Assembly: GCA_964234715.1 (NCBI GenBank)
Contig: OZ174287.1
From: Podarcis melisellensis
Lineage: Eukaryota
Strand: one strand, 5' to 3'
DNA: 64,000 bases
The notes below the pieces were generated by a model. That model saw nothing but the letters and a program-made list of their open reading frames with translations. It was not told where the DNA came from and did not search any database. Both the position numbers and the translations under genes were made by a program. Positions 54,001 to 57,000 of the stretch are shown here, one piece after another (the first letter of the stretch is position 1; each line of letters begins with the position of its first letter).

Positions 54001-57000
54001 GACTCTGCTCATAAGCTGTTCATTGGGGGTCTGCCAAACTATCTTAACGATGATCAGGTGAGAAGCGGTTTCTTTCCTTCTCGCCCTCTTCCTCCTTTCC
54101 ATTTAAGTGTCTTCATTTTTGGAGAGCCACTCTCCTTAGCTCAGCACAGTGCTTAAAACACCTGTGTGGGTGGCATGCAAGTATGATTGTGTGCACGCAC
54201 CCAAATGAAGCCCTCTTAGTTCACCTTTGTTTTTCCCTTGTCCTCTGCCTCTCAGGTCAAGGAGTTGCTCACTTCTTTTGGACCCCTGAAGGCTTTCAAT
54301 TTGGTGAAGGACAGTGCCACTGGCCTGTCGAAAGGTTATGCCTTCTGTGAATATGTGGACATCAACGTCACAGACCAGGTAGGGCCAGCCTCTCTTCGTG
54401 GTACTCTCTTTTTATTTTTGTTCCGCAGCAGCTCGCCGACCTGCCCGTGGGATAAGGGGGGTTCTTTATCCTTTGAGCAGGTGGGGTGTTTTTTTCTCTC
54501 CTCCCCTCTAGGGGGTGCCAGCTTTTCTCTCCTTACAGCACAGCTGCTGACTTAGCGGCAGACACCATCGAGTTAGTGTTCTGATCACTTCTGCTTTTTG
54601 TTCCCCCCAAAAAAACAACAACTCTCCCCGAATGTTAGTCGGAGAAGGCTTCGGCCTTTTTGCGAAGACCCCGGCCGCCGTGCCCGACCGAGAGCCGGTA
54701 AGAAGCCCTCCCCTCACCAGCCAGGGAAGAGCCGGGTCCGTAGCACATTTCACCTGTCCCACCCCCCAACCCCAACCCCAAGTGAATTCTCCATCCTGCA
54801 CTCTTAAGAATAACTTGAGTTTCCTTTCTCTCGCTGTGCTTAGTGTTACAGCGGGAGGGGGTGGAACAGGCCCTTAACCTGCAGACATGCTCTGCTTGCT
54901 AACTCCAGCAGGAGTTGTTAAATGCAAGTTTTGGCATGTGTAATTATAAACCAAAGGAAAAGCACCCCGGTTTTCCCCTTGCCCCTGTTGGAGAGGGGGG
55001 GACCTGTGGTGGAGAGGAAACACCCCACAAATCCCTATAGGGTTCGGAGAGTGTCGGTGGTAACTTTGCATGCTGAGCGTAAGCTCTCATTTCTGGGTTG
55101 ATCTCATAAGGGTTATGCATGTGGTTTTCTTTCATAATTGAGTGCCTCTGTTAGTGTGTATGGATATGTGTGTCTATATATACTTCCCACGCCTGCTTCC
55201 CATCCCGTGCATTCTTTCTTCCCATATGTTACTTGGGAAATGTGTGTTTTCCCCATGCTCTTTTGGTCTCTCTGCATTCAGGAGAAAGCTGTGAGTTTTT
55301 AGCAAGAGCTAAAATCTTGGTTCAGACATTCAGAATTAGATGGTGCTCCTTTGAAAAAAAGAATTCTCAGATACTTAGAAAGGCATCAGAAGCAGAGGAG
55401 AGTTTGCAGTGTTCGCTGAGAGTAGGGTGACTAGCAGCTTATTTAAACTGTAGGAAGGTAGATCTTGGTTAGATGCTATTGGGATAAATGTCTTGTGAAT
55501 GAGACTCAACAAGGAATCTGGGGTGATTGCTTTCAGGCCCTTTTTATGACTTTGGGATGTTGTCTGGGGTCTGGGTACACTAATTTAATCCCCCTTTCCT
55601 CTTACTGTACTCTCGGTGTTATGCCTTCCCCATTGTGTACTGTCTGTGAGTGTGGTCTCCATGTGTGAGGCCCAGGGCAATTGCCTCATCAATTAATTAA
55701 TTAAATTTCTATACTGCCCTATATCTGAGGATCACAGGCAGCTTATAGAGCCTGGCCTCAGGACAATGTGTTTGATTAAATGGCTTCCTCAAAGTACAAT
55801 TCTGTTTTCAGTGTTCTGTGTACTTGGACTCTCAACTACCAAATTCAGTTTTTAGCCTAGAACAAAGCATCCTAAATAACTTGGCTTTAAAAAAAAACAA
55901 CCCAAGTTCTCCTGCAGTTATGAAGAGAAGCTTGAAATGGTTAGCAGGAGAGAGAGTAGCTGAGTACAGCCTGCTGTGGTCAAGAATGGAGATTTCAAGG
56001 TGGCTTAAAAACACTTCTAAGTTTCTGTACTTTGCTAAGGTTTCTAGGAGATGTATGAATTAGCTTTAAGTGATGCTGACAGCACAGTCCAGTGATTGTT
56101 AACGTAGCTCTGTTGAAGAGAGTGAGATTTCTTACTCCCCAATCGTGCTTGAAGATTGCATCCTGAAACTGCTGATCTAGGAGTAACTGCTACCATACCG
56201 TTCTCTGAGGCAAGGGAAAGTTAATACCCAGTGCTCTTGGGAGTTAAAAGTACACCCATCCCCTGGCAAGAAGTGATTCATGATGAATGGCAGTCTGCAG
56301 CAAGGTGACATGTTATCAGTCCATAATGTTGTATACAAAAGTTGAGGGTTTGGCAAGAAATAGCATTACTGAAGACTATTCTGAAGTTAACTTTTAATTG
56401 GTTCACATAAAGGTTCCCTCCCCTCATTTATTAAAAATCAGTGTTTTTGGATGCAAGAAGAAACATTACACAGAATCTGGCAAACAAAATATTAAGAGTA
56501 ACAGGATCTGGAGTGTGATAGAGAACCCACGAATCCAGTGCTACACTTAAGTATCTCCGGAATTCAAAAAGATCTCAGCTCTTTTAAAGTGCTTAATGAT
56601 TTAGTTCACAGTGCACTCAATATGACCTTGCTTTAGTTGCACAACTATTCTGAGAGGTGGTGGCCTACTCTCACTCCCCTGGGATGGGACTTGAACTCTG
56701 CTGTTCTGCATCCAAACTAAGAATGTCAGCTGTCTCAGTTTGTCTCCTGGTGCCATTTGCTCAGGCTTTTAATTCAGACCCGTTTTACAGATGGGATGCT
56801 GACAAAACTGGATGTTCCGAGCCCTAGCAGGTCCAAAGTTTCCAACTTCACAGAAATTTAATGTATTTGTTGACAGCTGTGAAAGTCAAGGTCTTGGGTG
56901 GCATACTGCATTGTGGGGGAGGGCAATTTAGGTTTAAGCCATCTGAGTGAAAAAGTTGAAGAACAGGGGTGGGTAGATGCCAGTAAGTTACTGTGGTACT

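Follow-up and report, generated by a model that had tools for sequence, protein, structure and literature searches.

U2AF65, the product of U2AF2, defines most 3' splice sites, so control of its level matters for splicing overall. Human U2AF2 has a conserved poison exon, which the available text of Kovalak et al. 2021 (PMC8091538) states to be autoregulatory; its inclusion there is 4.7-4.8% by RNA-seq and reaches 57.5% in EJC libraries. The same exon appears in Pervouchine et al. 2019 (PMC6547761), in the part available, as a candidate predicted at lower confidence, with a self eCLIP peak nearby. A related class is outlined in the accessible portions of Parra et al. (2018 PMC6097662, 2020 PMC7373989), where decoy exons occur in the retained introns of SF3B1 (intron 4, E4a-f), OGT and SNRNP70; U2AF binds decoy acceptors in retained introns (PMC6097662), and the idea of 'silent' decoys, intronic sites that are never spliced, is raised in PMC7373989. 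The available text of Lareau and Brenner 2015 (PMC4379411) describes evolutionary turnover of AS-NMD events in splicing-factor genes. A search of titles and abstract starts, with subscription papers and most supplements outside its scope, returned no U2AF2 intron 9 exon and no squamate U2AF2 poison exon, and the accessible parts of PMC13247117, PMC13075997 and PMC7726792 hold nothing on a lizard U2AF2 intron 9 exon.

Here we describe such an exon in the lizard Podarcis melisellensis (GCA_964234715.1, contig OZ174287.1). The window, a stretch of 64,000 nt, contains a 12-exon U2AF2 gene on the + strand, whose exon map was derived from the genome's own processed retrocopy and whose 11 introns all have GT..AG ends. 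This alignment agrees with the gene and the intron number (9) assigned by an earlier, sequence-only reading of the window. The part of the gene considered below is as follows.

54256..54378, + strand: U2AF2 exon 9 (123 nt, ending in phase 0; retrocopy alignment, splice sites and junction reads)
54379..57793, + strand: intron 9, partly retained (3415 nt; GT..AG joint skipping 3415 nt, intron depth and X1 contig)
57794-57880, + strand: U2AF2 exon 10 (retrocopy alignment)

Four of the 24 listed runs were aligned to 53900-58000, a stretch that excludes exon 11. X23 and X24 are bulk raw RNA and X21 is single-cell raw data, all from organism C, a close relative; X1 is a contig set from organism A and is RNA by guess. 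None of the holders among the 24 listed runs is on record as RNA (14 are guesses), and splicing was therefore taken from the raw-read runs, of which about 12%, 12% and 6% was read. Four joints were listed, namely exon 8-9, exon 9-10, exon 9 to 54639 and 54697 to exon 10. The last two define a 59-nt exon with exact GT..AG boundaries, at precisely the positions that the sequence-only reading had predicted; its upstream joint was seen in two and its downstream joint in all three raw runs.

54639..54697, + strand: 59-nt frameshifting (poison) cassette exon (exon 9 to 54639 in 6, 5 and 0 reads; 54697 to exon 10 in 2, 8 and 2 reads; conserved codons)
54581..54638, + strand: weak 3' splice site for the poison exon (a yTnAy motif and 60 nt free of AG; 11 reads use the AG)
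54698..54703, + strand: donor of the poison exon, CCG|GTAAGA (used in 12 reads; 7/9 consensus matches)
57807..57809, + strand: premature TGA in exon 10 after inclusion (translation)

In total, 11 reads enter the exon from exon 9 and 12 leave it for exon 10, with 150 reads (53, 42 and 55 per run) skipping it. This corresponds to an inclusion of about 7%, 13% and 2%, a small body of evidence (23 reads) that comes from a relative and not from the individual of the window, and the skipping count would be too high if organism C expresses a retrocopy. The exon's joints were not seen in the X1 contigs. Inclusion adds 24 foreign residues before the TGA at 57807-57809; the frameshift to an exon 10 stop that had been proposed is confirmed by translation. 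The TGA lies 71 nt upstream of the exon 10/11 junction, and 320 nt separate it from the final junction. A stop that precedes a later junction by more than 50-55 nt elicits NMD, and because 71 nt exceeds this distance the inclusion isoform is an NMD target by the rule; that inclusion triggers NMD is very likely. The exon thus combines GT-AG splicing at defined boundaries in some transcripts, a stop beyond the 50-55 nt limit ahead of a later junction, and conservation above the intron background without a conserved protein frame. We hold with high confidence that the 59-nt poison exon is real and constrained.

The exon is preceded and followed by further elements resembling 3' splice sites. The AGs ending at 54428/54431, 54511, 54538/54543, 54638 and 54843/54851, as well as the GT donors at 54481, 54572 and 54698 (CCG|GTAAGA), are all present where the sequence-only reading had placed them.

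54405..54431, + strand: strong pyrimidine tract followed by CAG/CAG, candidate silent U2AF site (17/19 pyrimidines; homologous in the Micrurus record; no junction)
54488..54543, + strand: two strong tracts with TAG 54511 and CAG 54538/54543, candidate silent U2AF sites (19/19 and 16/19 pyrimidines)
54820..54902, + strand: downstream conserved stretch with a pyrimidine tract, AG 54843/54851 and a predicted hairpin (P0032 similarity recovers here; no junction)

The first of these tracts is 50 nt from the exon 9 donor; the second pair has G-runs on both flanks and is homologous in P0005 and P0019, again with no junction. The earlier reading had also claimed that pyrimidine tract plus YAG units are clustered. 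With a unit defined as a YAG plus at least 12, 13 or 14 pyrimidines in 16 nt, at least 6 of which are T (thresholds of our own choosing, applied to a 482-nt region picked after the fact), the region contains 5, 4 and 3 units, where the remaining 16.5 kb of intron in U2AF2 would predict 1.0, 0.47 and 0.12. This enrichment upholds the claim (Poisson P 0.004, 0.001 and 0.0002; dinucleotide shuffles P 0.02, 0.007 and 0.008), and 0 of 52 background windows reach the unit count. The same thresholds recover 9, 7 and 5 of the 11 true acceptors of the gene. The acceptor at 54638, for which alone use was observed, passes none of the three pyrimidine thresholds and is the weakest of the sites: its pyrimidine tract (about 54588-54609) is followed by an A-rich spacer and then TAG, and A54584 is the likely candidate for its branch point.

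Use of the other proposed acceptors and donors is so far unsupported: in none of the three raw runs did a junction at them reach the floor of 3 reads, among 161 reads leaving the exon 9 donor in the listed joints, a depth at which usage of less than about 5% per run would escape notice. Candidate exons at 54429/32-54480 and 54512/39/44-54571, and any starting at 54844/52, were set aside on the same absence of junctions in the raw runs, and the suggested array of several poison exons likewise lacks support so far. Nor does the acceptor at 54511 run into a stop within a few codons as had been expected, since 12 codons are read first. That the sites form a decoy array is plausible, if rather less likely than not.

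The exon and its neighbouring sites lie in a stretch of intron that has hardly changed.

54404..55080, + strand: constrained block around the poison exon, about 680 nt (no listed difference to organism A vs 3.4% in 55081-57279)

The X1 contig from organism A differs from the window at 76 substitutions over 54350-57279. Those listed fall at 54398 and 54403 and then not again until 55081 (69 lie beyond those listed), which gives zero listed differences in 677 nt vs 22.8 expected (P about 1e-10). Because those 69 substitutions were not visible, a second check was made with the share of sequence words held by each run. A model with no difference in 54404-55000 predicts 0.660 for organism A, where 0.66 was observed, and a model with one difference, the place of the one exon difference being assumed, predicts 0.636 for organism C, where 0.61-0.64 was observed; divergence at the background rate would give 0.30 and did not exceed 0.50 in any of 2000 simulations. 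Constraint had been proposed for 54379..54860 in the sequence-only reading. The constraint itself stands, far above the intron background both in the comparison with organism A and in translated records, and the end does not, as the block continues to about 55080. The CpG retention noted earlier is also present: the 482-nt region has 21 CpGs, 9 of them inside the 59-nt exon (o/e 1.26), compared with 0.59 CpG per 100 nt in distal intron 9 and 0.72 in other introns, making its density about seven times that of the distal intron.

Deeper conservation was read through translated records, which imply nucleotide conservation and are no proof that each AG is kept. The tail of a Micrurus (coral snake) protein matches window 54389-54505 at 28/39 residues, in a frame other than that of the lizard read-through, so that the non-coding frame is not kept between lizard and snake. 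Record P0019 matches 54454-54581 with one frameshift. In record P0032, 40/40 codons are identical over 54632-54751, spanning acceptor, exon and donor; the record diverges past 54751 and recovers at about 54835-54899. The best-kept part of the block is the exon with its two splice sites. The records from Buteo, Numida, tiger and goat and P0006, P0007, P0010 and P0023 showed no convincing similarity to the block, their lowest E-values being short W/P-rich or opposite-strand hits, and intron 9 in P0006 and P0023 spans only 84 and 87 codons (about 250-260 nt). Of 7 hits in a further search, P0019 alone proved to be a genuine homolog, P0022 being a match to a motif by chance and the other five being long repetitive proteins outside the comparison. 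A metagenome scan with exons 8-10 gave, in the best 80 of 237 loci, mostly intronless matches and none like intron 9 or 5 (best E 0.12). The element is therefore squamate-wide at least, in a sample made up of lizard, snake, bird, tiger and goat records and the other P-numbered records.

A known structured non-coding RNA or a repeat was rejected as the identity of the block, which has no Rfam match at E<=1 and whose intronic part has one genomic copy in a search that skips very common words. Folding of 54360-54840 gave no notable structure (z between -0.43 and 0.74), and only 54780-54960 reaches z -2 to -3. There, a predicted hairpin at 54830-54855 (fold z = -2.05) would bury AG 54851; judging from the translation only, the two residue changes of P0032 in this hairpin would be compatible with one U-G pair turned into C-G and one change in the loop. 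A second predicted hairpin, at 54885-54942, would bury AG 54908/54911 and carries a CTAAC motif.

Retention of intron 9, which the sequence-only reading had anticipated, can be seen in the same data. Sense-strand depth over intron 9 has a mean of 1.7 in X23 and 4.0 in X24, about 2% and 6% of exon 9 depth, and the 22 exon bases in the intron 8 bin account for the depth of that bin. X24 has a depth of 11 immediately 5' of the poison exon and X23 none, so the retained side differs between the samples at these low counts. A single X1 contig of 3603 nt connects exon 9 with exon 10 and includes nearly all of intron 9; its depth of 35.5, next to 48.2 for the spliced joint, is not a level, as is true of contig depth in general. 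No intron 8 contig occurs among the listed X1 pieces (4 more pieces exist). In addition, 14 RNA-like runs from 5 studies and 3 organisms, a selected set because they were ranked by holding the intron, contain 0.61-0.66 of the words of 53900-55000, where exons alone would give 0.14. Intron 9, which is longer than 1 kb, is thus selectively retained, with only 120 nt of intron 10 as the control. Two of the three outcomes that the sequence-only reading named as counting against it, conservation no higher than the intron background and a lack of cryptic splicing or retention, were looked for and not observed. A retained transcript would meet the following stop.

54553..54555, + strand: first in-frame stop (TAG) on retention (open reading frame list; after 58 read-through codons)

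The resulting 368-aa read-through protein is annotated in Podarcis lilfordi with 100% identity, and read-through isoforms are on record for both P. lilfordi and Micrurus; we infer that these proteins derive from transcripts. No sign of intronic polyadenylation was found, in that AATAAA/ATTAAA does not occur before 55700 and no read ends lie near the block.

How does this locus compare with the described systems? It shares with the human event, which the sequence-only reading had overlooked, the gene, a conserved cassette exon, a premature stop, low inclusion and, on the available text of the human studies, proposed autoregulation. It differs in position. In the part of the human supplementary material available, one junction ends at the acceptor of an exon that begins with GAGGC and corresponds to exon 6 of the lizard gene. 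This entry, an unannotated junction close to the poison exon and not the annotation of that exon itself, places the human event in intron 5, as opposed to intron 9 in the lizard. The published human figure was placed with an hg19-hg38 offset that we assume to be correct. Fig. S6C of PMC6547761, from the portion available, then indicates the same neighbourhood. The human donor motif has no match in the lizard gene and none within 3 mismatches in lizard intron 5, which has only 8 CpG in 1370 nt. Orthology of the two exons was therefore rejected, on the different introns and the missing donor motif, and the lizard exon looks like a separately placed equivalent of the human one. Elsewhere in lizard intron 5, at window 52755-52767 and about 100 nt before exon 6, there is a donor-like GGCAA|GTAGGC whose first 8 bases are as in the human intron 5 junction donor; it is beyond the 3-mismatch limit and likely due to chance.

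The SF3B1, OGT and SNRNP70 introns, as described in the accessible text, resemble this one in being large and retained, in having a conserved, inefficiently spliced cryptic exon with a premature stop, and in having several splice-site-like elements nearby. Decoy activity was shown there by reporters, antisense blocking and U2AF eCLIP, whereas the evidence here is sequence and reads; the extra sites of U2AF2 are mostly acceptors with no junction seen, and the U2AF2 product is the acceptor-binding factor itself. By analogy, the lizard exon may work like both the human U2AF2 exon and the SF3B1 decoy intron. The AS-NMD turnover of PMC4379411, in the part available, likewise involves highly conserved non-coding exon regions and different events that reach the same end in related genes; it concerns paralogs, in contrast to the orthologs in two amniote lineages compared here.

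Taken together, a conserved 59-nt exon with minority inclusion and an early stop likely sends U2AF2 mRNA to NMD and probably, on balance, provides negative feedback on the U2AF65 level. Autoregulation by U2AF65 is the most likely control of the exon, with somewhat better than even confidence. Displacement of the branch point and pyrimidine tract by 30-50 nt from the AG would produce a weak acceptor, which, being weak, is expected to need plentiful U2AF65 and would be used mainly when the free protein is abundant. The stronger, unspliced pyrimidine plus YAG sites upstream could bind U2AF65 without catalysis, and this silent binding may delay exon 9-10 pairing, leading to retention, and favour the weak acceptor. 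Inclusion and retention would each deplete productive mRNA. Any protein made would stop after 334 aa with the exon included or after 368 aa with the intron retained, and with the domain limits we presume for U2AF65 it would be without the end of RRM2 and without the C-terminal UHM domain.

Regulators other than U2AF65 could be indicated equally well by the block's G-runs and hairpin, and in one alternative the poison exon is genuine but responds to other factors or signals and not to U2AF65 itself. Named candidates include hnRNP H/F on the G-runs (54456, 54483, 54511, 54857 and 54995), PTBP1, PUF60 or RBM39 on the tracts, and temperature-dependent SR phosphorylation in an ectotherm; pyrimidine tracts have several known binding proteins, and both inclusion and the retained side vary between runs. 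Set against this, the enriched elements are complete tract plus YAG units, the substrate of U2AF, and the used acceptor is weak, of the type expected to sense U2AF concentration. Such control is compatible with U2AF65 feedback and as a replacement for it is unlikely. A decoy of the SF3B1/OGT type, with the block mainly holding intron 9 unspliced in the nucleus and inclusion as a minor leak, could account for the near-full intron 9 contig of X1 with no intron 8 contig among the listed pieces, for the intron words in the 14 RNA-like runs (0.61-0.66 vs 0.14 for exons alone), and for the read-through isoforms of P. lilfordi and Micrurus from an intron of more than 1 kb. However, those runs were selected for holding the intron, contig depth is not a level, and retention in the bulk raw runs is only about 2% and 6%, similar to or below an inclusion that NMD would deflate, all of which makes this distinctly improbable.

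The two remaining explanations are weaker still. Constraint acting on the DNA, as an enhancer or an unmethylated CpG patch with splicing as cryptic noise, would fit the CpGs kept in the exon (o/e 1.26) and a block ten times longer than the exon, but conservation peaks at the exon and both its splice sites, block reads are sense-strand only in the stranded runs, and an inclusion of 7-13% at a single precisely bounded exon is more than one would expect from noise in a strongly expressed gene. Long conserved flanks are, moreover, typical of poison exons in the available text of PMC4379411, and we consider this explanation highly improbable. Least credible of all is that the isoforms yield a shortened but functional U2AF65 carrying a novel C-terminal tail: annotated read-through proteins exist (P0001 and P0005), but the lizard and snake tails are in different frames, the stop obeys the NMD rule, and the region before 55700 has neither AATAAA/ATTAAA nor read ends. 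Negative feedback through the poison exon remains the preferred explanation.

A poison exon placed apart from the human one suggests that feedback on U2AF2 is required and that its position is free to change, even between orthologs. A bolder proposal, which we regard as doubtful, is that a U2AF2 self-destruct switch moved within amniotes (intron 9 in squamates, intron 5 in humans) and that its squamate form may be a U2AF65 concentration sensor, in which strong, never-spliced sites would stall the intron and hand U2AF65 to a weak acceptor. Whether never-spliced intronic U2AF sites ('silent decoys' in the accessible part of PMC7373989) control retention and poison-exon use is a standing question of the decoy model, and the 680-nt block, in which several strong acceptors are silent and the one in use is weak, offers a compact minigene for that model.

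Several other features of the gene can be recorded. At the exon 10 donor (57881), loose read ends past exon 10 all run into the start of exon 11, and they give no sign of a 12-nt longer donor of the kind we take human U2AF2 exon 10 to have. Exon 3 (window 49046-49075) is 30 nt long and codes for a linker common to lizard, snake and bird records; tiger and goat records have a longer linker, unlike the one coded by lizard exon 3. Intron 7 contains a long, near-perfect inverted repeat (window 53627-53795, arms ~80 bp, read from the sequence), which is probably a small non-autonomous DNA element. The processed U2AF2 retrocopy, at L002:555-2505 (G000:C16, about 24,934,290-24,936,240), has a target-site duplication and poly(A) and is very young, with only 4 differences from the coding exons in 1402 bases compared. 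One of these is a stop 4 codons before the end, leaving an open frame of 462 aa (of 466). The retrocopy is without the poison exon and, if expressed, would escape poison-exon control.
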